Source: an uncultured Nitrospiraceae bacterium
Lineage (GTDB): Bacteria > Pseudomonadota > Gammaproteobacteria > Acidiferrobacterales > SPGG2
Assembly: GCA_964347935.1 (NCBI GenBank)
Contig: CAYGAS010000066.1
Location: 1 to 43,663, forward strand
Reading direction: 5' to 3'
Length of the DNA: 43,663 nucleotides
A program made the position numbers and the translations under genes. The notes beneath the pieces were generated by a model that had not been told where the DNA came from, made no database searches, and saw only the letters and a program-made list of their open reading frames with translations. Numbering within the stretch: position 1 is the stretch's first letter; each line of letters begins with the position of its first letter. Positions 20,820 through 30,859 of the stretch are shown here, piece by piece.

Positions 20820-21681
20820 TCTTCAATGCCATCCACTTTTTGCCCTCTAGCGGCGCGACGACGATCTCGTAGCGCTCCCGCAGCCGTTGGTACGCGAGCT
20901 CATTCACTTCCCGCCGTCTATCGATTAGAAAATCGTTCTCGACCTTTTCGCGCACGGCCGCGAATTCCGGCAGGCGTGATTCAGTACGATCACTGATATA
21001 GACGAGGTGCAAACCGTATCCGGATGCAACGGGCCCTTGCCATGTCTCCGGCTCGAGCTCCACAAGGCGTCTTACAAACGCCTGACCGAAATCCCGCGCG
21101 ATCTCAGGCGCGCTTTTTTCTACGTACTCGTGCGCCAGCATGAAGCGATCACCCCGCTCTCGCGCGCGCTCAGGTGATTCCTTGACTGCTTGCAAGCGGT
21201 CAAGTTCAGCTTGGGCATCCCTTTGAATGCTCGAGCCGCGCCGATCGGGATTGAAATAGATGTGCGCGAAGCTTAGTGAAACGGGCTGACGGTAGCGTTC
21301 CTGGTTCTCTTGGAAATAGGCGCGAAGCTCGGCCTCATCAGGTTCCGTCGGCACCGCAAGGTCAGCCACGAGGAACTCCACCTTTTGCGCCATACGGCGA
21401 CGCACGATCGTGTCATCTTTGTCCAGGCCTAATGCCAACGCCTCTCGATAGAGCACTTCCTCGCGGATGTGGGCTTCGATCAGGCTTTCGAGCTCCGGCT
21501 GCGTCGGCGGACGTTGCCACTGTTTCATCCAGCGCGTGCGCAGGAGGTCGATGTCGTTCGCCGACACCTCGATTCGCGTGCTGGTCGAAGTCGCATACGG
21601 ATCGTTGAGCCAGAGATAGGCAGCGAAAAGGAACGCGCCGATGGCAAGAAAATGCACCAGCGGCTCGCGGTACCACGTCAC
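20809..21681 (-). CDS. Membrane-anchored PpiC/parvulin-type peptidyl-prolyl isomerase-like chaperone (Rotamase_2-like)
   Basis: It has an N-terminal TM helix (LVHFLAIGAFLFAAYLW), a SurA-N-like helical region and a GPVASGYGLHLVYI parvulin-like block. I chose the GTG at 21681 as the start because a GGAGGAG SD lies 4 nt upstream. The ORF is open to ATG 21774. Confidence 0.75.
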   Translation of the reverse strand: MTWYREPLVHFLAIGAFLFAAYLWLNDPYATSTSTRIEVSANDIDLLRTRWMKQWQRPPTQPELESLIEAHIREEVLYREALALGLDKDDTIVRRRMAQKVEFLVADLAVPTEPDEAELRAYFQENQERYRQPVSLSFAHIYFNPDRRGSSIQRDAQAELDRLQAVKESPERARERGDRFMLAHEYVEKSAPEIARDFGQAFVRRLVELEPETWQGPVASGYGLHLVYISDRTESRLPEFAAVREKVENDFLIDRRREVNELAYQRLRERYEIVVAPLEGKKWMALKNEK

Positions 21682-21745
21682 GTCTCCTCCACTTGGGTGG
21701 TCGGTTCTGAGGCAGGTAGGTTTTGCTACCGATTTGAAGCGTTGC

Positions 21746-21774
21746 ACCTTAACGTCAGTGGTCTGCGAATGCAA
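21746..21774 (-). promoter_or_regulatory. Candidate sigma70 promoter for the PPIase-HupE-DUF3604 operon
   Basis: On the minus strand: TTGCAT (21774-21769), a 17-nt spacer, then TAAGGT (21751-21746), about 65 nt upstream of the GTG start. This is a pattern match only. Confidence 0.3.
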
Positions 21775-21841
21775 GGCAAGGTTAATGACAAATCTAAGGG
21801 CTGATTTAATGCTTAGCAGGGCTAAGGTTTTGGCATTTGTG

Positions 21842-21867
21842 TCGACAAGGCCGGTCGGCCTTGTCGA
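21842..21867. terminator. GC-rich perfect hairpin between the DMT gene and the PPIase-like gene (possible terminator or insulator)
   Basis: TCGACAAGGCC-GGTC-GGCCTTGTCGA forms an 11-bp perfect stem. It starts 10 nt after the DMT stop. There is no U-tract on either strand. Confidence 0.4.
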
Positions 21868-21876
21868 AGTGAGCAG

Positions 21877-22839
21877 TCACGCGGCGCCAGTAGGCGGGGG
21901 CGGCCCTTTGACTTCCCGGGCGGCGGGAAGCGCGTTGGCCGCTTTATCTTGGCTCTCGCGATAAGCGGTGTAGGTGGCGGCCGCAAATACCGTCACACCA
22001 CCGATCCATACGCCTGCATCGGGCACCTCGGCAAACGCCGTGTAGCCAATCAACGCACCCCAGATGAGCTTGAGGAAATCCAGCGGCAGAACCGAGGTCG
22101 CGTCGGTCATGCGCAGCGCCTGCGCCATGCCGAGCTGTGCCAGGGTGCCGGATATGCCGACAAACACAAGCCACAACAGTTGCTCGCCATTGGGCCACTG
22201 CCAGAAGAACACGGCCGCGAGAAATGACAGCGGTGTCATCAGCAGCACCATATAGGCCGTGATCGTCACGGACGAGTCAGTCCGGGAAAGCGCTTTAATA
22301 ATGATAATCGCGCAGGACCAGATCGCGGCCGAGCCGAGCACCAGCAAAGAGCCCAGATCAACGGATTTCAGGCCCGGACGGATGATGATCAGCGCGCCGA
22401 TAAAACCGACGATGAGCGCGCTCCAGCGCCAAAAATAACTTTTCTCCTTGAGAAAAAAGATCGCCAGCAAACTCGCGAACAACGGCGCCGTAAAGCCCAA
22501 CGCCTGCACCTGGGCAATCGGTGTCAGGCCAAGTCCCATAAAGAACATCAGCATAGCCACCACATTGACCAAAGCACGCGCCCCGTGCAGGCCGAATCGT
22601 TGCGTACGCAACGGCGCCAAGCCTCGTTGCAAGAACCAGGGTGCAAGTGCCAGCAGACCGAAGAAGTTCCGAAAGAAGGCGATCTCGAAAGGGTGCAGAT
22701 GCTGCTGGGTCGCAAGATAGCGCACGCCCCCATGCATACCTGCGAAACAGATCGTTGATCCGACCATAAAAAGAATACCGAGCATGGGCGAAGACTGCTC
22801 GGTGTTCATTCTCGAGAGCAGGCGAGAAAAAAGTGGCAA
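21877..22839 (-). CDS. DMT-superfamily (EamA-like) transporter
   Basis: 320 aa with ten hydrophobic segments in two EamA-like halves. The start could be a downstream Met (M11 or M19). Confidence 0.85.
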   Translation of the reverse strand: MPLFSRLLSRMNTEQSSPMLGILFMVGSTICFAGMHGGVRYLATQQHLHPFEIAFFRNFFGLLALAPWFLQRGLAPLRTQRFGLHGARALVNVVAMLMFFMGLGLTPIAQVQALGFTAPLFASLLAIFFLKEKSYFWRWSALIVGFIGALIIIRPGLKSVDLGSLLVLGSAAIWSCAIIIIKALSRTDSSVTITAYMVLLMTPLSFLAAVFFWQWPNGEQLLWLVFVGISGTLAQLGMAQALRMTDATSVLPLDFLKLIWGALIGYTAFAEVPDAGVWIGGVTVFAAATYTAYRESQDKAANALPAAREVKGPPPPTGAA

Positions 22840-23080
22840 GTGAAAACTCCCTACGGCTGGTTGCCGCAGTCATGATACGGCTTTCCCTCGTGCGGTGCAC
22901 ACAGCAAGCGACGATTGCACCGGAGCAACGTGCCCCTGATGACCGACATCATTGCCAAGAGCCGGCCATGAACAACGGTTGCTGCCTTTGTTATACGATA
23001 TTATGCTGCAATTTCGACTAGCCGCGTGTGTGCGGTCCTTGTACAATTTGGCCCAAGAACAGCGGCGCGGTGAGACAGTC

Positions 23081-23926
23081 ATGAAAACAATACTCGTGCC
23101 GTTTCACGGCACTGATATGGGGCAAACAGCCCTCGAGCTGGCGTATAGAATGGCGCAGCACTTCGGCGGCTACGTTGAAGGCTTGTTCGTGCGTCAGCCC
23201 CCGCCGATTGTCGCCGGCGAGGGGATCACGATTCCCGGCGAGTACCTAGCCCAGTTGGTCGAGGAAAGCCGCAAACTTGCCGATAGCGCGCGCGAGCGTT
23301 TTACTAAGTTCATTAACGAGAAAGGTCTTCCGCTGCAAGACGTCACCTTCGCCTCGGAGCAACCGTCAGCGGGCTGGCGCGAGGTGGAGGGCCTCGAAAG
23401 CCAGATCGTCGGCGAGTACGGGCGCTTATTCGATGTGATCGTGATCGGTTGCGCAAACAAGCAGTCGGTCGCGGACCGTAATGCCATGTGCGAGGCGGCA
23501 CTGTTCGACAGCGGTCGTCCAGTGTTGACCGCGAGCGCAGAACTCCCGCCAACTTTCGGCAAGACCATCGTCGTCGCTTGGAACGGTAGCACGGAAACCG
23601 CCCGCACCATCGGCCTCGGCATGCCGCTCCTGTTGCGGGCGGAACGAGTTGTTGTACTGACGGTCGAAGGCGCGACGGTACCGGGCCCGGGCGCGGAGCA
23701 GGTCACCCAGCATCTGGTCCGCAACGGTGTTCGTGCCGAGGTTAAGATCGCTCAGCTCGAAGGCCGTACATCAGGGGTCGCCATACTCGAAGAGGCGAAG
23801 CAATTCGGCGTCGACCTGTTGTTCAAAGGCGCCTATTCCCACAGCCGTTTGCGCCAGATGATTTTCGGCGGCGCCACCTCGCACATCCTGGCCTCTGCCG
23901 ATTTGCCCGTGTTCATGGCGCATTGA
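23081..23926 (+). CDS. Tandem-domain universal stress protein (UspA family)
   Basis: It begins MKTILVPFHGTD and has a second half (KTIVVAWNGS...) ending GAYSHSRLRQMIFGGATSHIL, which is the Usp ATP-binding G-2x-G-9x-G(S/T) region. The ORF is open from 22952, but the domain starts at 23081. Confidence 0.8.
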   Translation: MKTILVPFHGTDMGQTALELAYRMAQHFGGYVEGLFVRQPPPIVAGEGITIPGEYLAQLVEESRKLADSARERFTKFINEKGLPLQDVTFASEQPSAGWREVEGLESQIVGEYGRLFDVIVIGCANKQSVADRNAMCEAALFDSGRPVLTASAELPPTFGKTIVVAWNGSTETARTIGLGMPLLLRAERVVVLTVEGATVPGPGAEQVTQHLVRNGVRAEVKIAQLEGRTSGVAILEEAKQFGVDLLFKGAYSHSRLRQMIFGGATSHILASADLPVFMAH

Positions 23927-24231
23927 CTCTTGGACCCTCGCCGGTGTGGGCGCGCGGCTCCAGGCTTTCGCCTTATCCGACCGTGCACCGCAGCCGCGAG
24001 AAGGGGCATACTGCCCCCGCGGCGGGCAGCACTTTCGTCGCTGCGCTGTCCTGCTGCGCTCGAAAGTCCGGGGCGCGCCCGCGCGGCGGGAGCAGGGTCC
24101 GCTGGACCTTTCTCGGGACGCCGCCTCGCCCTTGTGCTTGCCCCCAAAGTGGGGCTTCAGCCGGTGCGCGCTCGGGGCTCCAGCAGTCGCCTTGCAACCA
24201 CGCCGGCGAGGCTGGCACAGTGGGTGGCACG

Positions 24232-24627
24232 ATGAGCCTGCCGATCTTTCATATGCTGAGCGGTGCGCCGGAGCCGGTGGCACCGTATAGTCACGCGGTC
24301 GAGGTCGAGGGCTGGGTGTTTGTCACCGGGCAGCTTGCGACCGATGTCCGCTACGATCCCGCAGACATACCCGAAGGCATCGAGGCGCAGACTGACAAGG
24401 TCATGCAAAACCTGCGCACGGTGTTACAGGGTGTGGGCGTCGGCTTCGAGAATGTCGTCTGTGCGCGCGTCTTTCTCACCCACTTCGAAGAGGACTACGC
24501 CAGGATGAACCGGGTCTATGCGAGCTACTTCCCGCAAGAGAAGCGTCCCGCGCGTACTTGTGTCGGCGTCACGGCACTGGCCGGTGGAGGGCGCGTCGAA
24601 ATCGACTTGATTGCACGCCGGCCTTGA
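24232..24627 (+). CDS. RidA/YjgF/UK114-family reactive-intermediate (enamine/imine) deaminase
   Basis: 131 aa. The motifs PVAPYSHAVEVEGWVFVTGQLA ... PARTCVGVTALAGGGRVEIDLIA are typical of RidA. The upstream 103 codons of the ORF are Arg/Pro/Ala-rich junk and were not included. Confidence 0.85.
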   Translation: MSLPIFHMLSGAPEPVAPYSHAVEVEGWVFVTGQLATDVRYDPADIPEGIEAQTDKVMQNLRTVLQGVGVGFENVVCARVFLTHFEEDYARMNRVYASYFPQEKRPARTCVGVTALAGGGRVEIDLIARRP

Positions 24628-24652
24628 CCAGAACGACGTACAGCGTGGAGCG

Positions 24653-25444
24653 ATGCCGATGAAGCTGAGCGACGCACAATTGCGAAGCTTTCATGACGAC
24701 GGTTTCCTGATTCTGCCGCAGCTTTTCTCGATCGAAGAAGTCGAGCTCATTCGTGCCCAGCTGCCGACGTTGTTCGCCGAGCGCTGCCCGCAGAACTTTC
24801 GCGAAAAGGATTCTGATGTCGTGCGCACGGCAATGGGCCTACACCTGCGAAACGATGTCTTTGCGCGTTTGGTGCGCCACCCGCGCTTGCTCGAACCGGC
24901 ATTGCAAATCCTGAAAGAAGACGTCTACATCCAACAGGTCAAGGTCAATGCGAAGGAAGCATTCTCGGGCGAAGTGTGGCAATGGCACTATGACTTTGCC
25001 ACCCATCACGGCGAAGACGGCGTGCCGAAGCCGCTCGCGCTTAACCTGCACATCTTTCTCGACGAAGTGAACGAGTTCAACGGTCCGCTGGTCTTCATAC
25101 GCGGTTCGCACAAGCACGGGCCGGCACCGACGAGTCTCGATACCGTCACGACCAGTTATCCACTGTGGACGGTAGACGACGAAACGGTTCAGGCCTTGGT
25201 AGCCGACGGCGGATTGGTGGCCGCCAAGGGGCCGCCGGGCACGGCGTTGATCTTCGCCGACTGTCTCGTGCACGGCTCGTCGATCAATATGTCGCCGTGG
25301 CCGCGACGGATTTACTCGCTTATCGTCAACCCGCTTTCGAACGCCCTCACCCGTCACCGACGTCCGGACCACCAGCATCATCGCGATGTCACACCGGTGA
25401 CACCACTAAGCGATGATTGCCTGTTCGCTGGGGTGGCGGCGTGA
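24653..25444 (+). CDS. Fe(II)/2-oxoglutarate dioxygenase, PhyH family, ectoine-hydroxylase (EctD)-like
   Basis: A GGAG SD lies 4 nt upstream. [17 protein letters not shown] parallels the EctD signature F-x-WHSDFETWH-x-EDG-M/L-P, where H-x-D supplies the metal ligands. The distal His lies in FIRGSHKHG. Confidence 0.8.
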
Positions 25445-26727
25445 AGGAACCGCATTCCGGATACTTTAGCTCCCCACTCGCCGAGGCCGACCCGCAGGTT
25501 GAACGTGCCGTCGCCGGCGAGCTGCGCCGGCAACAGAATCAGATCGACCTGATCGCCTCCGAGAACCTCGTGAGTCGCGCCGTGTTGGAGGCGCAGGGCT
25601 CGGTCTTCACGAACAAAACGGTCGAAGGCTATGTCGGTCAGCGCTACCACGGGGGCGCGGATTACGCCGATCAGATCGAAGCGCTTGCTATCGAGCGGGC
25701 CCAACAGCTCTTCGGTTGCACCTATGCCAACGTGCAACCCCACTCGGGCAGCCAGGCCAACCAGGTCGTATTTCTCGCCTTCCTGAAACCGGGTGACAAG
25801 ATCCTCAGCATGGAGTTACCCGCAGGAGGTCACCTCAGTCATGGTGCGAAGCCCAATCTGTCCGGCAAATGGTTCAACGTCGTTCAGTACGGCGTCAACG
25901 AGAGCTCGGGCTTGATCGATTACGACGAGGTCGAGAGACTCGCTATCCAACAGCAACCCGAACTGATCATCGCCGGCGGCTCAGCGTATCCACGCGTTAT
26001 CGACTTCGCGCGCTTTCGCGCCGTCACCGATCGCGTGGGCGCGTTGCTGCTTGTCGATATGGCGCACTTCGCGGGCCTGGTCGCGGGCGGTGTACATCCA
26101 AGCCCGCTGCCCCACGCAGACATCGTCACTACAACGACCTACAAGAGCCTGCGCGGCGCGCGTGGCGGCTTGATCTTGGCCAACGACGCGGACCTAGGCA
26201 AGAAGATTGACGCTGCCTTGTTCCCCGGTCTACAAGGCAGCGCAATGCTTCACAGCATCGCCGCCAAAGCCGTCTGCCTCGGCGAGGCGCTACGACCGGA
26301 ATTTCGAGAATACGCGCGCGCAGTCGTTCAAAACGCGCACGAGCTGGCATCGATCTTAGACGAGCGCGGTTATGCGCTCGTGTCCGGCGGCACCGATACA
26401 GCGCTGATGCTACTGGACGTGCGCCCGCAGGGACTGACCGGTAAGGCCGCCTGCGACAGTCTCGAGCAAGCCGGCCTGACGTGCAACAAAAACGCCATCC
26501 CCGGCGATCCGCAACCACCGACGCTCACGTCGGGGCTGCGTCTGGCGAGCTCTGCCGGCACCACGCGTGGATTCAGGGCCCGGGAGTTTCATCAGATCGG
26601 GCATTGGATCGCAGACGTGCTCGATGGGCTCGCGAAGAACCCCGACGACAACGGCACCATTGAACGGAGCGTTCGCAAGCAAGTGAGCGATCTCTGCCGG
26701 CGTTTCCCAATATATTCCACTACATGA
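25417..26727 (+). CDS. glyA: Serine hydroxymethyltransferase-family PLP enzyme, divergent paralogue
   Basis: SHMT blocks are present: [32 protein letters not shown] and [15 protein letters not shown] (PLP Lys). The start is either ATG 25417 or GTG 25441, the latter giving a GTGA overlap with the dioxygenase stop. Several normally invariant positions differ (see findings). Confidence 0.85.
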
Positions 26728-26823
26728 AGCGCGTAACAGCTTACAGGTGGCCACTTCTAATCGTGAGTCAGAAGTAGATAAGACAAAAAGCAAAAAGTAT
26801 ATTTTGGTCGGCACGCTTTGCTT

Positions 26824-26886
26824 GAAAAGGAACGCCCCCACGGCTGCTTTACTTTCGGGACGAAGGTTTTCGATGCCGCCGTATGG
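26824..26886 (-). pseudogene. Relic 3' end of a second, diverged sulfatase gene
   Basis: The minus-strand translation PYGGIENLRPESKAAVGAFLF lies immediately downstream of the intact sulfatase stop. It compares with the intact C-terminus PYEGIENLRPESKAAVREFLF. Most shared codons differ at synonymous sites. No upstream body or proper stop is present. Confidence 0.55.
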
Positions 26887-26916
26887 TCGTGCACCCTTCC
26901 CAAGCGAGCGAGTCGG

Positions 26917-28620
26917 TTACATCTCAGGCGACTTAATCATGAATAGAAACTCCCGCACAGCCGCCTTCGACTCGGGCCGCAGGTTCTCAATACCTTCGTA
27001 GGGGATCCCGATCGCCGGCCCCTCGTCCGGATACTTCGCCTTGCGTTTCAGGTGGCGTTGGACCATGCGGACGAACTTGGCCCCACCCCAGGCGCCGATT
27101 TCCGTGGACACCGGGTATCTTTCCTGGGGGTCGCGGAACAAATCGTAGAATTTGGCCAGGATGGCATTCTCTATGTTGCCCCCGGGAATAGCTAATTTGT
27201 ACTGCTCCTTCACGACCGCTTCCAGCTTGTTGATGTTGTAGAGGAACACGTAGTCACGTCGCCCATGCGTGTCCCCGTTCAACATCAGGGTCGTCTGGTC
27301 GATCCCGTCGATGATCCGGTCGGTGGGAACCTTGCTCGTGGCCCCGGCCAGGCGGGCGATGGTTGTAAACAGGTCCGATACGTGAATGATGTCCCCGGCG
27401 ACGGAATCGGCCTTGATCATGCCTGGCCAGCGCACGAAAGCGTCCACCCGCACCCCGCCCTCCGTGGTGTCGCCCTTGCCGCCGCGGAAGATCATCGGGG
27501 TGTAACCGGATTGCGGCGAGTACTTGGTGAAGTGACCGTTGTCACCCATGACGATGACCAGGGTGTTATCGGCGATACCCAACTTGTCCATCTCGGCCAT
27601 CAGCTCGCCGATCCACTGATCCACCAGCTTCATCTTCTCCACGTAGATTCCGCCATTCGGCGTGGTGTATTTGTCGGTGGTCGTGCGGGGACCGGTCAGG
27701 GGGTACAGCGGCCAGTAATTCAGGAAGAAGGGTTTATCGGCCTTGGCCAGCTTGCGTAGCTGCTCCATGGTTTGCTTCTGGTAACGCACGTTCATCTCGT
27801 GGTACTTCTTCTCGTTCCAGCGCTCGCCGGTCTGCATGTGCACTTCTCGGACGGGCTTGTTGCGTTGGCCCTCGACGCCTGTGACCATCGCCGACGCATC
27901 GGTGCGCAGCCAGCGATCCATGGTGTAACGACCATCGTAGTTGTTGTCGCCGATGCCGATAGAGACTTCCTCGTTTGCCGAGTCATCGTTAAAGATGGAC
28001 AGCTGACCCTGCTGGTGAATCGGGAAGGCGGCGTAGTCAAAGCCTTGGTAATTCGGCCAGGCTTCCCGGATGTCACCCATGTGCCACTTGCCGATATGGG
28101 CCGTGTTGTAGCCGACTTCAGACAGGATCTCCGCCAGGGTCACTTCCTTGCCGGCCAGTCCAAAGCCGGAAATATCGACGGAGGTATTCCCCATGCCGTT
28201 GCGAAACGGCTGGCGGCCTGTCATGAAGGCTACTCGGGTCGGCGTACAAGAGGGTTCCGTGTACATGCGTGACAGGCGCATCCCCTCGCGGGCGATCTTG
28301 TTGATCGCGGGTGTGCGGTATCCCCGGATGGCGTTGAGTGTCTCGCTGCCGAGATCGCCGAAGCCGATGTCGTCGATCAGGATGTAAAGAATGTTCGGCG
28401 GCTTGCCTCCGTTATTCTTGCGGAACTCCGTCAGCTTGACGTCGAGCGTTTTATCCTCGACGGCCCACTTCTTACCGTTCTGCGCTTCTAGGATGTAGTA
28501 CTCTGCGTCGTGGACCAGCTTGACGCTTTTGCCCTCCTTGGCCGATGCAGCGGTGGCCAACGGCGCAGCCCCCGCGAACATTATCGTCAGACCGGAGATC
28601 GCTAAGGTTCGAAGGTTCAT
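26917..28620 (-). CDS. Secreted formylglycine-dependent sulfatase (arylsulfatase family)
   Basis: It has a signal peptide (MNLRTLAISGLTIMFAGAAPLATAASA), the metal-binding LYILIDDIGFGD and the SCTPTRVAFMTGR C-x-P-x-R motif. The start is at ATG 28620, with a GAGGA SD about 9 nt upstream. No FGE or anSME maturase gene is present in the window. Confidence 0.9.
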   Translation of the reverse strand: MNLRTLAISGLTIMFAGAAPLATAASAKEGKSVKLVHDAEYYILEAQNGKKWAVEDKTLDVKLTEFRKNNGGKPPNILYILIDDIGFGDLGSETLNAIRGYRTPAINKIAREGMRLSRMYTEPSCTPTRVAFMTGRQPFRNGMGNTSVDISGFGLAGKEVTLAEILSEVGYNTAHIGKWHMGDIREAWPNYQGFDYAAFPIHQQGQLSIFNDDSANEEVSIGIGDNNYDGRYTMDRWLRTDASAMVTGVEGQRNKPVREVHMQTGERWNEKKYHEMNVRYQKQTMEQLRKLAKADKPFFLNYWPLYPLTGPRTTTDKYTTPNGGIYVEKMKLVDQWIGELMAEMDKLGIADNTLVIVMGDNGHFTKYSPQSGYTPMIFRGGKGDTTEGGVRVDAFVRWPGMIKADSVAGDIIHVSDLFTTIARLAGATSKVPTDRIIDGIDQTTLMLNGDTHGRRDYVFLYNINKLEAVVKEQYKLAIPGGNIENAILAKFYDLFRDPQERYPVSTEIGAWGGAKFVRMVQRHLKRKAKYPDEGPAIGIPYEGIENLRPESKAAVREFLFMIKSPEM

Positions 28621-28987
28621 AGTGGAGTCCTCATATTCCTTCAAAGGCACTATAGGTTGATCGTAATCGTTTCAGCGAGATAGGCGAATTTGGGCGGTAG
28701 ATGATAAGGGCCTCACACAGAGCGCGCGTTAAGCAAGCACTTGTTGGATTGACGTTGGTGGAAGCCGTGGACGCCTCGCGTAAATCACTCGGCTTGTTAA
28801 TTCGGATTCGTCTGCAGATGACGAGTGCTCCTCCCGTCGGGGTCTGATCAACCTCTTAGAGGGGCCATAGTCTGCCAATTGCTCCGAAATTTGTCGATCT
28901 TTGTATACCTTTAGAGCAGCATGGGATTACCACGAATATCGAACGCCGTGCCTGATCGAACCAGTTACTGTGAACGTTGGCTACGTA

Positions 28988-29052
28988 TATGGACTCCTCC
29001 TACCTCGGTAACTGGGTTGAGTCTTAACGAAATGTCCACGGAGGAGTCCATA
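28988..29052. repeat. 13-bp perfect inverted repeat with a 39-nt spacer in an AT-richer non-coding region
   Basis: TATGGACTCCTCC (28988-29000) pairs with GGAGGAGTCCATA (29040-29052). I checked this base by base. Confidence 0.6.
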
Positions 29053-29063
29053 CATTGGCTCGA

Positions 29064-29080
29064 TTTCTGTCTGACAGAAA
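29064..29080. promoter_or_regulatory. Perfect 17-bp palindrome, candidate operator (GntR-like TGT-N3-ACA core)
   Basis: TTTCTGTC-T-GACAGAAA has 8/8 symmetric arms and lies about 155 nt upstream of the Nudix gene ATG. Confidence 0.35.
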
Positions 29081-29233
29081 CTTGCCCCCAGCAGCTTGTG
29101 GGTCCACACCTGCCAATCAGTTTCGATCGAATCCGACGCTGTCTGTATGGTCGAGTTTGAGCTGATACAATTCAGGATTGAAAAAACGCGCCTTTATCTT
29201 GAACCTTGTAACTTGTCCCTCGTCTCTTAAGAT

Positions 29234-30085
29234 ATGAGCTTTCTCGATCGCATCAGGGAATGTAACGAGTACGACCTCGGCAGGTTTCAGCCGTTGCGGA
29301 TCGCCGGGCACCGCCTCGGCTGGGTACGCCACGATATCGCCGACCGACTCGCTAATTACCCGGATGTCTTTGAATGTGGAGAGCGGGCAATAGTACTCAG
29401 TACGAGGTTGGATTCCTTCGAAACACGCTCGGCGGCCGTAGCGCCCGTACTCGAAGCGTTGCGCGATGATGGCGTGATTCCCGCGTGGCGTGATGAGCGC
29501 TATCCCGTCGCTATGACATACGGCGCGCCACCGCTGCTACAAATGGAACGCGCCGCCTTTCCCTGCCTGGGATTGCGCGCCTACGGTGTGCACATCAATG
29601 GTTTCGTGCGTGAAGGCGGACACACCAAGATGTGGATCGCGCGACGCGCGCTCGACAAACCGACCTTTCCCGGAATGCTCGACAACATGGTCGCCGGCGG
29701 CCTGCCGATCGGCATCGGCTTGCGCGACAACCTCATCAAGGAATGCGCCGAGGAAGCGGGTATCCCCGAAGGATTGGCGATACGGGCCGTCCCGACCGGG
29801 GCGATTTCCTACTGCAAAGAGGTTCCCGAGGGTCTCAAGCCTGACCTGCAGTTTGTCTACGATCTCGAACTGCCGCCCGGGTTCAAGCCGCAACCCGTCG
29901 ACGGCGAGGTCGAAGCCTTCTACCTCTGGCCGATCGAAAAGGTGATGGAGGTTGTCGCTAACAGCAACGACTTTAAATTCAACTGCGCCCTTGTCATCAT
30001 CGATTTTCTCGTGCGTCGCGGCTTCCTTTCGCCCGAGGACGTTGACTATCTGCAGATTGTCGATGGCCTGCGCCGGCCGTCGTAG
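29234..30085 (+). CDS. Nudix hydrolase with N-terminal DUF4743-like domain
   Basis: It has the N-terminus MSFLDRIRECNEYDLGRFQPLRIAGHRLGWVRHD and a Nudix-box core GGLPIGIGLRDNLIKECAEEAGI. Confidence 0.85.
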   Translation: MSFLDRIRECNEYDLGRFQPLRIAGHRLGWVRHDIADRLANYPDVFECGERAIVLSTRLDSFETRSAAVAPVLEALRDDGVIPAWRDERYPVAMTYGAPPLLQMERAAFPCLGLRAYGVHINGFVREGGHTKMWIARRALDKPTFPGMLDNMVAGGLPIGIGLRDNLIKECAEEAGIPEGLAIRAVPTGAISYCKEVPEGLKPDLQFVYDLELPPGFKPQPVDGEVEAFYLWPIEKVMEVVANSNDFKFNCALVIIDFLVRRGFLSPEDVDYLQIVDGLRRPS

Positions 30086-30124
30086 AACAGAGACTAGCTG
30101 GATGGACTCGAAAAGAAGGACATC

Positions 30125-30859
30125 ATGAGGCTCCATGACTTCGACGCACTGACGTTTGACTGTTACGGCACCTTGATCGACTGGGAACGAGGCATCCTTA
30201 GCGAGCTCAAACCGTGGGTGCAAAAGAACGGTTTAACGATCGACGACGGCGAAATCCTCGAGGCATTTGCCGAGCTCGAGCCGCAACATCAGGCCAAAAC
30301 ACCGGACCAGCTTTACCCGGATGTGCTGACCGCCGTGTATCTCGACCTTGGCAAGCGTTGGCACATACCGGCGGATCCCGATGACGCGGTGGCGTTCGGC
30401 CAATCGATTGGCCGTTGGCCCGCGTTTGCGGACAGTACGGCATCGTTGCAGTACCTAAAAGGACATTACAGGCTTGTCGTCTTGTCCAATGTCGACCGGG
30501 CCTCGTTCGCCGACAGCAACAAGAAGCTCGACGTAGCGTTCGACCGCATCATTACAGCCCAGGATGTGGGCTCCTATAAGCCCGATCCCCGCAACTTCGA
30601 GCATCTGATCAGCGAGCTGGCCGACATGGGGATTGAGAAGAAAAAGATTCTGCATACCGCCCAAAGCCTGTTTCATGACATCGCCCCCGCTCAGGCCGCC
30701 GGCTTGCATACGGCCTGGGTCAACCGTCGCAGGGGCAAAGCAGGTGGCGGCGCGACAGCCCCGCCTGCTTATAGCGTCACACCGGACTTCGAGGTCGCGA
30801 GTCTGGAAGAACTTGTCGACAAACACAAAACCGAGTTGCAGGACCGAAGTAATAAGTAG
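30125..30859 (+). CDS. HAD-superfamily hydrolase, haloacid dehalogenase type II-like
   Basis: It has motif I (ALTFDCYGTLIDW), motif II (LSNVD) and the C-terminal TAQSLFHDIAPA. An AAGGA SD is present. Confidence 0.85.
   Translation: MRLHDFDALTFDCYGTLIDWERGILSELKPWVQKNGLTIDDGEILEAFAELEPQHQAKTPDQLYPDVLTAVYLDLGKRWHIPADPDDAVAFGQSIGRWPAFADSTASLQYLKGHYRLVVLSNVDRASFADSNKKLDVAFDRIITAQDVGSYKPDPRNFEHLISELADMGIEKKKILHTAQSLFHDIAPAQAAGLHTAWVNRRRGKAGGGATAPPAYSVTPDFEVASLEELVDKHKTELQDRSNK

Follow-up and report, generated by a model that had tools for sequence, protein, structure and literature searches.

The DNA considered here is a stretch of 43,663 nt (contig CAYGAS010000066.1, positions 1 to 43,663; hereafter the window) from the assembly GCA_964347935.1 of an uncultured bacterium of the gammaproteobacterial order Acidiferrobacterales. 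Three genes lie head-to-tail on its plus strand and encode a RidA-type protein, a PhyH-family Fe(II)/2-oxoglutarate (2OG) dioxygenase and a paralogue of serine hydroxymethyltransferase (SHMT), in this order (Table 1). The analysis centers on the latter two, which are found side by side in distant taxa and are candidates for successive enzymes of one amino acid route. Other loci and contigs are referred to by L and C numbers, respectively.

The tight coupling of the three genes, previously noted from the sequence alone, was confirmed at the level of the open reading frames (ORFs). The gap between the RidA and dioxygenase genes measures 25 nt from ATG 24653 and 31 nt from ATG 24659. The latter codon is probably the true start, because a GGAG precedes it at a distance of 8 nt and the alignment with homologues begins at residue 3. 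The TGA stop of the dioxygenase gene overlaps the GTG start of the SHMT gene in a GTGA tetranucleotide at 25441-25444. An ATG at 25417, formerly considered as a second possible SHMT start, had to be discarded as this codon reads TTG. For the Acidiferrobacterales genome loci L007 and L008, the match coordinates, rather than the start codons themselves, imply the same 4-nt overlap of dioxygenase and SHMT.

The SHMT paralogue is a genuine member of its family. It reaches 557.6 bits with the NF000586 model (cut-off 335), and its PF00464 score (Table 1) exceeds the cut-off of 27. The protein has the pyridoxal phosphate (PLP) lysine K235 in TTTTYK, the Asp200-equivalent DMAH within DMAHFAGL, and the carboxylate-binding arginine in TSGLRL. 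E57 (in VEG), R235 and the R363-equivalent TSGLR motif are likewise kept, and in its folate-side motifs the enzyme does not differ from canonical alpha-type GlyA. To place the gene within its genome, the assembly (3.76 Mb, 96% complete) was searched. It holds three strong SHMT matches, one distant SHMT-like gene and a single PhyH gene. The SHMT on contig C400 shows all canonical motifs and precedes nrdR, as is usual for glyA; the window SHMT is 54% identical to this copy and 47% identical to another on contig C307. Because a canonical glyA-nrdR is encoded on C400 and a further SHMT on C307, the window gene is not the housekeeping glyA, as the sequence-only reading had proposed.

The housekeeping active-site residues Y55, Y65, H228 and G263 (E. 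coli numbering) are replaced in the window enzyme by T60, H70, Y234 and S267. Y55 and H228 are found in all 41 canonical sequences compared, and RYY and QGG in those with printed motifs. In E. coli numbering, the substitutions are Y55T, Y65H, T128S, H228Y and G263S; the complete set of signature residues in window numbering is T60, V61, H70, S133, Y234, A240, S267 and A321. The altered residues 55, 65 and 263 are contributed by the partner subunit. H228 mutants of the E. coli enzyme reportedly lose stereochemical control at the alpha-carbon of glycine.

Among the 120 best database relatives of the window SHMT, 87 carry a coupled signature and the remaining 33 are canonical alpha-type GlyA with 54-69% identity (nearly all 66-69%). 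The signature consists of the changes NKY to NKT, AEG to VEG, GHLTHG to GHLSHG, TTTHK to TTTYK, GPRGG to G[A/V]RGG (in most cases), QGGP to QG[S/T]x, and TDTH to TDT[A/P/S/G]. All motif departures listed in the sequence-only reading are indeed present in the protein, and their distribution is uneven. When compared with the two other SHMTs of the genome and 35 canonical alpha-type GlyA sequences, NKT, TYK, QGS, G[A/V]RGG and GHLSHG, the last of which was absent from the sequence-only list, are clade-wide and RYHGG occurs in most members, whereas GYVGQ is confined to the closest relatives. ENLVS and TDT were dropped as special features, since canonical alpha-type GlyA also has SEN[IL]VS and TDTH.

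A maximum-likelihood tree of 86 sequences unites all SHMTs that bear the signature in one clade (SH-like approximate likelihood ratio test, SH-aLRT, 100), which is nested in the alphaproteobacterial-type GlyA. After removal of the five signature blocks (56 columns), a core of 38 sequences including the window SHMT retains 100% support. Judged by these alignments and trees, the substitutions mark a discrete paralogue clade rather than ordinary lineage variation, and the expectation from the single sequence was borne out. The frequency of the signature was estimated in sampled genomes with a contiguous 41-nt degenerate pattern and its reversed form as control. Matches were obtained in 5 of the 400 genomes sampled from the phylum and in none of 117 from the window's own class; the reversed control gave 0 matches. 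For this reason, the gene is considered rare and probably acquired by this gammaproteobacterial lineage from Alphaproteobacteria, and the same origin is probable for the dioxygenase-SHMT cassette. A metagenome scan with the SHMT returned almost exclusively canonical GlyA loci, L121 being the sole clade member. Sarcosine-oxidase-linked plasmid glyA genes (Aminobacter, Microvirga, S. meliloti) were considered as relatives of the clade and rejected, as they show the canonical signature instead.

Two further SHMT-family genes of the genome (G000) are unusual in themselves. The SHMT on C307 (L003:1480-2838, plus strand; 453 aa) has a very long branch and keeps Y55, Y65 and H228, with the odd motifs IPSENYTY, QPLSGSPMN and GGTRNH and a C-terminal tail of ~35 aa. 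Its neighbors are a GspH-like pseudopilin gene on one side and a gene of the metallo-beta-lactamase fold on the other. The fourth, distant gene on contig C327 (L004:1393-3126, minus strand) encodes 577-617 aa with an N-terminal extension of 136 aa. It scores 109 bits with PF00464, 229 bits with an SHMT subfamily model (below the cut-off) and 122 bits with a fluorothreonine-transaldolase model.

A characterized group with a similar signature are the alpha-methylserine hydroxymethyltransferases (mSHMTs; EC 2.1.2.7, equivalent to D-alanine 2-hydroxymethyltransferase), which have the same SHMT fold as the window enzyme and are defined by the THF-dependent conversion of alpha-methyl-L-serine to D-alanine. 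The mSHMT genes of TRIS-degradation plasmids (Pseudomonas hunanensis Teo1, Shinella Teo12) and plasmid-borne relatives from Ensifer and Paracoccus served as proxies for EC 2.1.2.7. The TRIS-pathway mSHMTs are most similar to confirmed mSHMTs that form D-amino acids, and the mSHMT-type enzymes nearest to the window SHMT by signature depend on tetrahydrofolate (THF) (PMC10848231). Both groups have NKT, R[FY]H, GHLSHG and QGS. T55, H65, S128, a non-histidine residue before the PLP lysine, and S263 are common to them, on the same alpha-type GlyA background (SEN[IL]VS, TDT). They differ in the residue before the PLP lysine, which is Tyr (TTTTYK) in the window SHMT and Thr (TCTTTK) in mSHMTs, and in the TSG of TSGLRL, where mSHMTs have W-x-G. 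The Thr form also occurs in two dioxygenase-linked SHMTs (L022, L032), with TTTTTK and QGSAHLQ. In overall identity (54-58%), the window SHMT is no nearer to mSHMTs than to canonical GlyA. The genomic contexts are different as well: glyA2-dsdA-folD-purU is found in CP131128 and LysR-glyA-folD-purU in Shinella p2_Teo12, and none of folD, purU and dsdA is located beside the window SHMT. With all columns, though not after removal of the five signature blocks, the mSHMTs fall inside the signature clade (support 100%). Shared descent or convergence would explain the likeness, the same positions being under a shared constraint other than that of GlyA.

The dioxygenase has the iron triad H112-x-D114 and H207 and the 2OG-binding arginine R218. 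In a set of 38 homologues (54-84% identical), H112, D114 and R218 are invariant and H207 nearly so; R237 is invariant too. The AlphaFold model of the protein (predicted local distance difference test, pLDDT, 93) is structurally closest to GriE, an L-leucine 5-hydroxylase (Z 36.3, 35% identity), followed by the trans-3/4-proline hydroxylase H11 (Z 36.2, 42% identity). Both superpositions are full-length, with a root-mean-square deviation of 1.8-1.9 over ~256 residues. Going by the titles of the structure entries, the product of H11 is 3-hydroxyproline. EctD (Z 31, 33% identity) and human PhyH (Z 24) are more distant. GriE grips its substrate via the amino and carboxyl groups, and its Arg242 forms a salt bridge with the carboxylate (PMC5676206). 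R237 of the window dioxygenase is the counterpart of this residue in the HMMER alignment. Owing to the full-length fold match with GriE and H11 and the conserved carboxylate-binding arginine, the enzyme very probably hydroxylates a free amino acid or a compound closely analogous to one. It shares with GriE and H11 the fold, the iron triad, the 2OG arginine and the arginine for the substrate carboxylate. In contrast to these enzymes, which stem from natural-product clusters or environmental DNA, the window family occurs widely and in varied neighborhoods, in Alpha- and Gammaproteobacteria from sea and soil as well as in Acidimicrobiia and SAR11.

The initial description of the dioxygenase as EctD-like was not upheld, as leucine and proline hydroxylases are at least as near to the protein as EctD is. 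Its score with the EctD equivalog model TIGR02408 (150.7 bits) is below the cut-off of 336.5; together with the closer GriE and H11 matches, this rules out an identity with EctD. Both belong to the same PhyH subfamily and share the general chemistry, but no ect genes are found in the window. Like H11, EctD hydroxylates the carbon adjoining the one that bears the carboxylate.

The recurrence of the gene pair was analyzed with one genome per species. At least 398 dioxygenase loci were detected, and the best 80, from Alpha- and Gammaproteobacteria, Acidimicrobiia, SAR11, Acidobacteriota and other groups, were kept for neighborhood counts; except for those confirmed by tblastn, all neighbor counts are lower bounds (high-GC loci). 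An SHMT gene is located within ~200 nt of the dioxygenase gene in 13 of the 80 species-level loci, and all 13 SHMTs carry the clade signature. The taxa with a linked pair are Acidiferrobacterales, Kiloniellales, Rhodospirillaceae, Methyloceanibacter and unclassified Alphaproteobacteria; L087/L088 and L121 are additional linked cases. Both gene orders occur, the majority having the dioxygenase gene before the SHMT gene. On the dioxygenase tree, linkage requires 6 changes, at least 4 of which are forced by well-supported branches. According to this tree, the linkage was repeatedly gained or retained. Chance adjacency is negligible, given that only 5 of the 400 sampled phylum genomes bear the SHMT signature.

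In an Acidimicrobiaceae metagenome-assembled genome (MAG), a distant PLP gene resembling SHMT and threonine transaldolase (L026:3882-5207, minus strand) is convergent to the dioxygenase gene at a distance of 61 nt. The encoded protein is 31% identical to the window SHMT and has STYK before the lysine. At this locus, the dioxygenase may have been paired independently with an enzyme of the SHMT fold.

RidA is less consistently associated with the pair. The window protein matches PF01042 (Table 1) and narrowly misses the cut-off of TIGR00004 (102.9 bits, cut-off 106.25). Near its C-terminus is a PARTC motif, whose arginine is the putative catalytic one (Arg105 in Salmonella RidA). A RidA gene adjoins the dioxygenase gene only in Acidiferrobacterales (window, L008 and L121). 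It is absent from all 11 dioxygenase-SHMT loci outside this order (9 genome loci and L087/L088). In L007, the closest relative from Acidiferrobacterales, an ORF of 728 aa (~2.2 kb, L007:1726-3912) without a Pfam match separates RidA from the dioxygenase. RidA is thus a lineage-specific companion from the imine/enamine deaminase family, outside the conserved two-gene unit. Of the trio that was expected to be conserved in relatives, the dioxygenase-SHMT part does recur in distant taxa, although the link is not obligate, and the RidA part holds for Acidiferrobacterales only.

These data bear on an obligate three-gene pathway, in which RidA is integral and the SHMT acts as a folate-free retro-aldolase that gives glycine and an aldehyde. 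The tight spacing and common direction of the three genes, the same order in L008 and L121, the established ability of SHMTs to cleave 3-hydroxy amino acids without folate and the putative catalytic arginine of RidA are in line with such a pathway. It is nevertheless quite unlikely in view of the missing RidA in all pair loci beyond Acidiferrobacterales and the intervening ORF in L007. Moreover, the SHMT keeps E57, which is tied to the folate-dependent reaction, its folate-side motifs are those of canonical alpha-type GlyA, and the nearest characterized relatives by signature are THF-dependent (PMC10848231). The folate-free cleavage suggested by the sequence-only reading lacks support, and so do glycine and an aldehyde as its products; the signature is common to THF-dependent alpha-methylserine-type enzymes.

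Other genes are recurrently found near the dioxygenase. In at least 8 loci, a LysR regulator is encoded beside it. EamA genes homologous to each other (cluster c5) are located nearby in the window, L008, L062, L073 and L079, and another EamA gene is found upstream of the pair in L027. Agmatinase-like ureohydrolases, scoring below the agmatinase equivalog cut-off, are encoded near the dioxygenase in four loci (L073:3015-4004, L059:4815-5918, L031 and L063). They overlap or abut the dioxygenase gene in SAR11 and in a gammaproteobacterial MAG; in L059 and L073, the overlapping genes are translationally coupled. Taken together, LysR, EamA and ureohydrolase neighbors suggest an inducible catabolism, perhaps of a guanidino-bearing compound.

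A different arrangement was observed in Pelagibacteraceae (SAR11 single-cell genomes; L072:3533-5448 and L077). Here, the dioxygenase gene is located between separate ORFs for the N-terminal and the C-terminal (Rossmann) part of XdhC. A molybdenum hydroxylase resembling CoxL and xanthine dehydrogenase and an FAD subunit are encoded upstream, and the next gene is MobA-like.

The reading that accounts best for the pair, and that is held with moderate confidence, is a two-gene cassette for hydroxylation and subsequent cleavage, composed of a hydroxylase for a free amino acid and a dedicated PLP enzyme of the SHMT family. Given the overlapping stop and start codons, both genes would be translated from a single message. 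The dioxygenase would bind the free amino acid by its alpha-carboxylate and hydroxylate carbon 3. The SHMT paralogue would then build the external aldimine of the 3-hydroxy amino acid and break the C2-C3 bond, so that a smaller amino acid and the hydroxylated fragment are released. The anatomy of the genes, their families, the intactness of the catalytic residues, the existence of the paralogue clade and the repeated linkage are observed, and the order of the reactions, the catabolic direction and the class of substrate are inferred. In Acidiferrobacterales, RidA as an add-on may mop up imines from this or a later PLP- or oxidase-dependent step.

Two versions of this cassette fit the data about equally well. 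In version (a), which is put forward with some doubt, carbon 3 would be a methyl group on a substituted alpha-carbon, and the hydroxymethyl group would be passed to THF in the manner of alpha-methylserine hydroxymethyltransferase; an alpha-methyl amino acid would yield alanine and methylene-THF. In version (b), which is suggested tentatively, carbon 3 would be a side-chain methylene, and glycine and an aldehyde would leave. As an example, 3-hydroxyarginine would be converted to glycine and guanidinobutanal. An arginine-type substrate, with glycine and a guanidino-aldehyde as products, would also explain the ureohydrolases coupled to the dioxygenase elsewhere. The SHMT may depend on folate, since it resembles canonical alpha-type GlyA in E57 and in the folate-side motifs, and version (a) is about as likely as version (b) because the signature is shared with THF-dependent alpha-methylserine-type enzymes. 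By analogy, version (a) is backed by the mSHMT-like signature and by the Rhodococcus 2-aminoisobutyrate (Aib) pathway. Version (b) draws on the general retro-aldol ability of SHMTs, the coupled ureohydrolases and the LysR neighbors. The latter two suit an inducible catabolism of a common, perhaps guanidino-bearing amino acid. That the pair stands for a catabolic route widespread in environmental Alpha- and Gammaproteobacteria, with 3-hydroxylation followed by a C2-C3 split and with arginine (or a relative) or an alpha-methyl amino acid as candidate substrates, can be offered as a possibility at most.

The logic of such a route has precedents. In carnitine synthesis, trimethyllysine hydroxylase, a member of the TauD/BBOX group, is followed by hydroxytrimethyllysine aldolase, which is an SHMT in mammals. 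In the Aib pathway of Rhodococcus, AibH1H2 hydroxylates the substrate to alpha-methylserine, and the SHMT-like AibC acts later (PMC7782822). AibH is a diiron enzyme of the amidohydrolase fold, and AibC is a decarboxylase that follows two dehydrogenase steps (PMC7782822). Both routes share with the proposed cassette an oxygenase that adds a 3-hydroxyl group and an SHMT-family PLP enzyme that breaks a bond at the alpha-carbon. They differ in that their oxygenases belong to other families and neither is a bacterial cassette of two genes.

Several observations weigh against the proposed cassette. In 67 of the 80 dioxygenase loci, no clade SHMT is encoded alongside, and an NKT-type SHMT is present elsewhere in only 5 of 39 genomes with an unlinked dioxygenase. 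Conversely, of 7 clade SHMTs looked up in other assemblies, 6 lack a PhyH gene in the surrounding 4-6 kb, and the dioxygenase was found in only one of the five sampled signature-bearing genomes. LysE or EamA exporters often adjoin the clade SHMTs that are not linked to PhyH. The pair is therefore not obligate, as most genomes examined carry one gene without the other. Neither an aldehyde dehydrogenase gene nor folD/purU nor a D-amino-acid gene was found with the pair in the window, and the hydroxylated carbon cannot be deduced from the sequence of the dioxygenase. Once the five signature blocks are removed, the position of the mSHMTs in the SHMT tree is no longer resolved. Finally, residues 55, 228 and 263 may chiefly rewire the binding of the PLP phosphate instead of reshaping the substrate pocket.

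In part, these points would suit the absence of a joint pathway, with the SHMT as a spare or condition-specific GlyA isozyme for glycine or one-carbon units and the dioxygenase as an unrelated frequent neighbor. Besides the separate occurrence of the two genes, all core residues of serine cleavage except Y55, Y65 and H228 are present in the SHMT. Furthermore, one alphaproteobacterial clade (L029, L045 and L087) has the order acyl-CoA dehydrogenase (ACAD), SHMT, PhyH and 5-aminolevulinate dehydratase (ALAD, hemB), opposite a gene of the aminotransferase class that resembles 5-aminolevulinate (ALA) synthase. In these loci, the SHMT gene is found beside hemB. This explanation is unlikely, however. 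Adjacency recurs at 4-6 independent places of the dioxygenase tree and in both orders, stop and start codons overlap as GTGA in the window, and the SHMT is changed at positions where the 41 canonical sequences of the comparison show no variation. The context of haem genes is limited to the one clade and absent from the window; a supply of haem precursors was rejected as a general meaning of the pair on the same grounds.

A reverse, biosynthetic order was also considered, in which the SHMT builds a 3-hydroxy or alpha-substituted amino acid from glycine or D-alanine that the dioxygenase then modifies, yielding a solute or a precursor of a natural product, or in which the SHMT is an AibC-like decarboxylase. 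SHMT reactions are reversible, LysE and EamA exporters are encoded beside several clade SHMTs, and AibC is an example of an SHMT homologue that serves as an aminomalonate-type decarboxylase in a hydroxylase pathway (PMC7782822). Still, such chemistry is very unlikely here: no genes for nonribosomal peptide synthetases, tailoring enzymes or solute synthesis were found around any pair examined, the dehydrogenases needed for an AibC-type route are not adjacent, and LysR regulators and ureohydrolases indicate catabolism. The hydroxylation-cleavage cassette remains preferred.

In databases, hundreds of clade members go under the plain name serine (or glycine) hydroxymethyltransferase, and the dioxygenase is annotated as phytanoyl-CoA dioxygenase; these names are unlikely to fit the functions. 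If the proposal is correct, a function would be assigned to a large clade of "glyA" genes now annotated as ordinary SHMT, and marine and soil bacteria would have an oxygen-dependent route for the breakdown or trimming of amino acids. It would also be a case of a housekeeping PLP enzyme re-tooled through a few coupled active-site changes. Two biocatalysts would become available, namely a regio-selective hydroxylase of amino acids and, for unusual 3-hydroxy amino acids, an aldolase or hydroxymethyltransferase. In genome-scale models, counts of "glyA" copies would over-estimate the one-carbon capacity. A literature search for a pair or operon of phytanoyl-CoA dioxygenase and SHMT returned no relevant paper. 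Both families and the logic of the pathway are already known, and the pairing itself is probably undescribed.

The features around the pair are listed in Table 1.

Table 1 Genes and other features at the RidA-dioxygenase-SHMT locus (window positions)
Feature	Position	Strand	Match or remark
EamA/drug-metabolite transporter (DMT)-family transporter	21877..22839	-	PF00892, 106 bits
Tandem universal stress protein (Usp)	23081..23926	+	PF00582
G+C-rich spacer between Usp and RidA, 305 nt	23927..24231	none	One copy of a repeat dispersed in the genome
RidA-type Rid family protein, 131 aa	24232..24627	+	PF01042, 111 bits
PhyH-family Fe(II)/2OG dioxygenase	ATG 24653 or 24659 to TGA 25444	+	PF05721, 95 bits
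SHMT paralogue, 428 aa, "NKT/TYK" clade	GTG 25441..26727	+	PF00464, 493 bits
Sulfatase, convergent, downstream of SHMT	26917-28650	-	
NUDIX (DUF4743) and HAD-hydrolase genes	29234-30859		

The EamA/DMT transporter is a possible carrier of the substrate or product, and its membership in the unit is putative. The Usp gene upstream of RidA, dioxygenase and SHMT is conserved in Acidiferrobacterales only (L007, L008 and L121). Between Usp and RidA, the spacer measures ~5 nt in L007, ~120 nt in L008 and 305 nt in the window. Other copies of the repeat that forms the window spacer are found on contigs C78 (81% identity, 196 nt) and C65 (73%, ~200 nt), and C43, C222 and C325 contain short fragments of it. 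No Rfam match (E ≤ 1) was obtained in 21000-30000, and the spacer folds no better than shuffled sequences (fold z-score -1.1). By these two results and the identity of the spacer as a dispersed repeat, a riboswitch or leader upstream of RidA was ruled out. In the scan for promoters and terminators, the counts were within ~1 standard deviation of the shuffled expectation.

Downstream of the pair, the NUDIX and HAD-hydrolase genes directly follow the SHMT gene in L007 and L008 but are displaced by the sulfatase gene in the window. Since these genes adjoin SHMT in both relatives and not here, the sulfatase gene appears to have been inserted into a conserved block.

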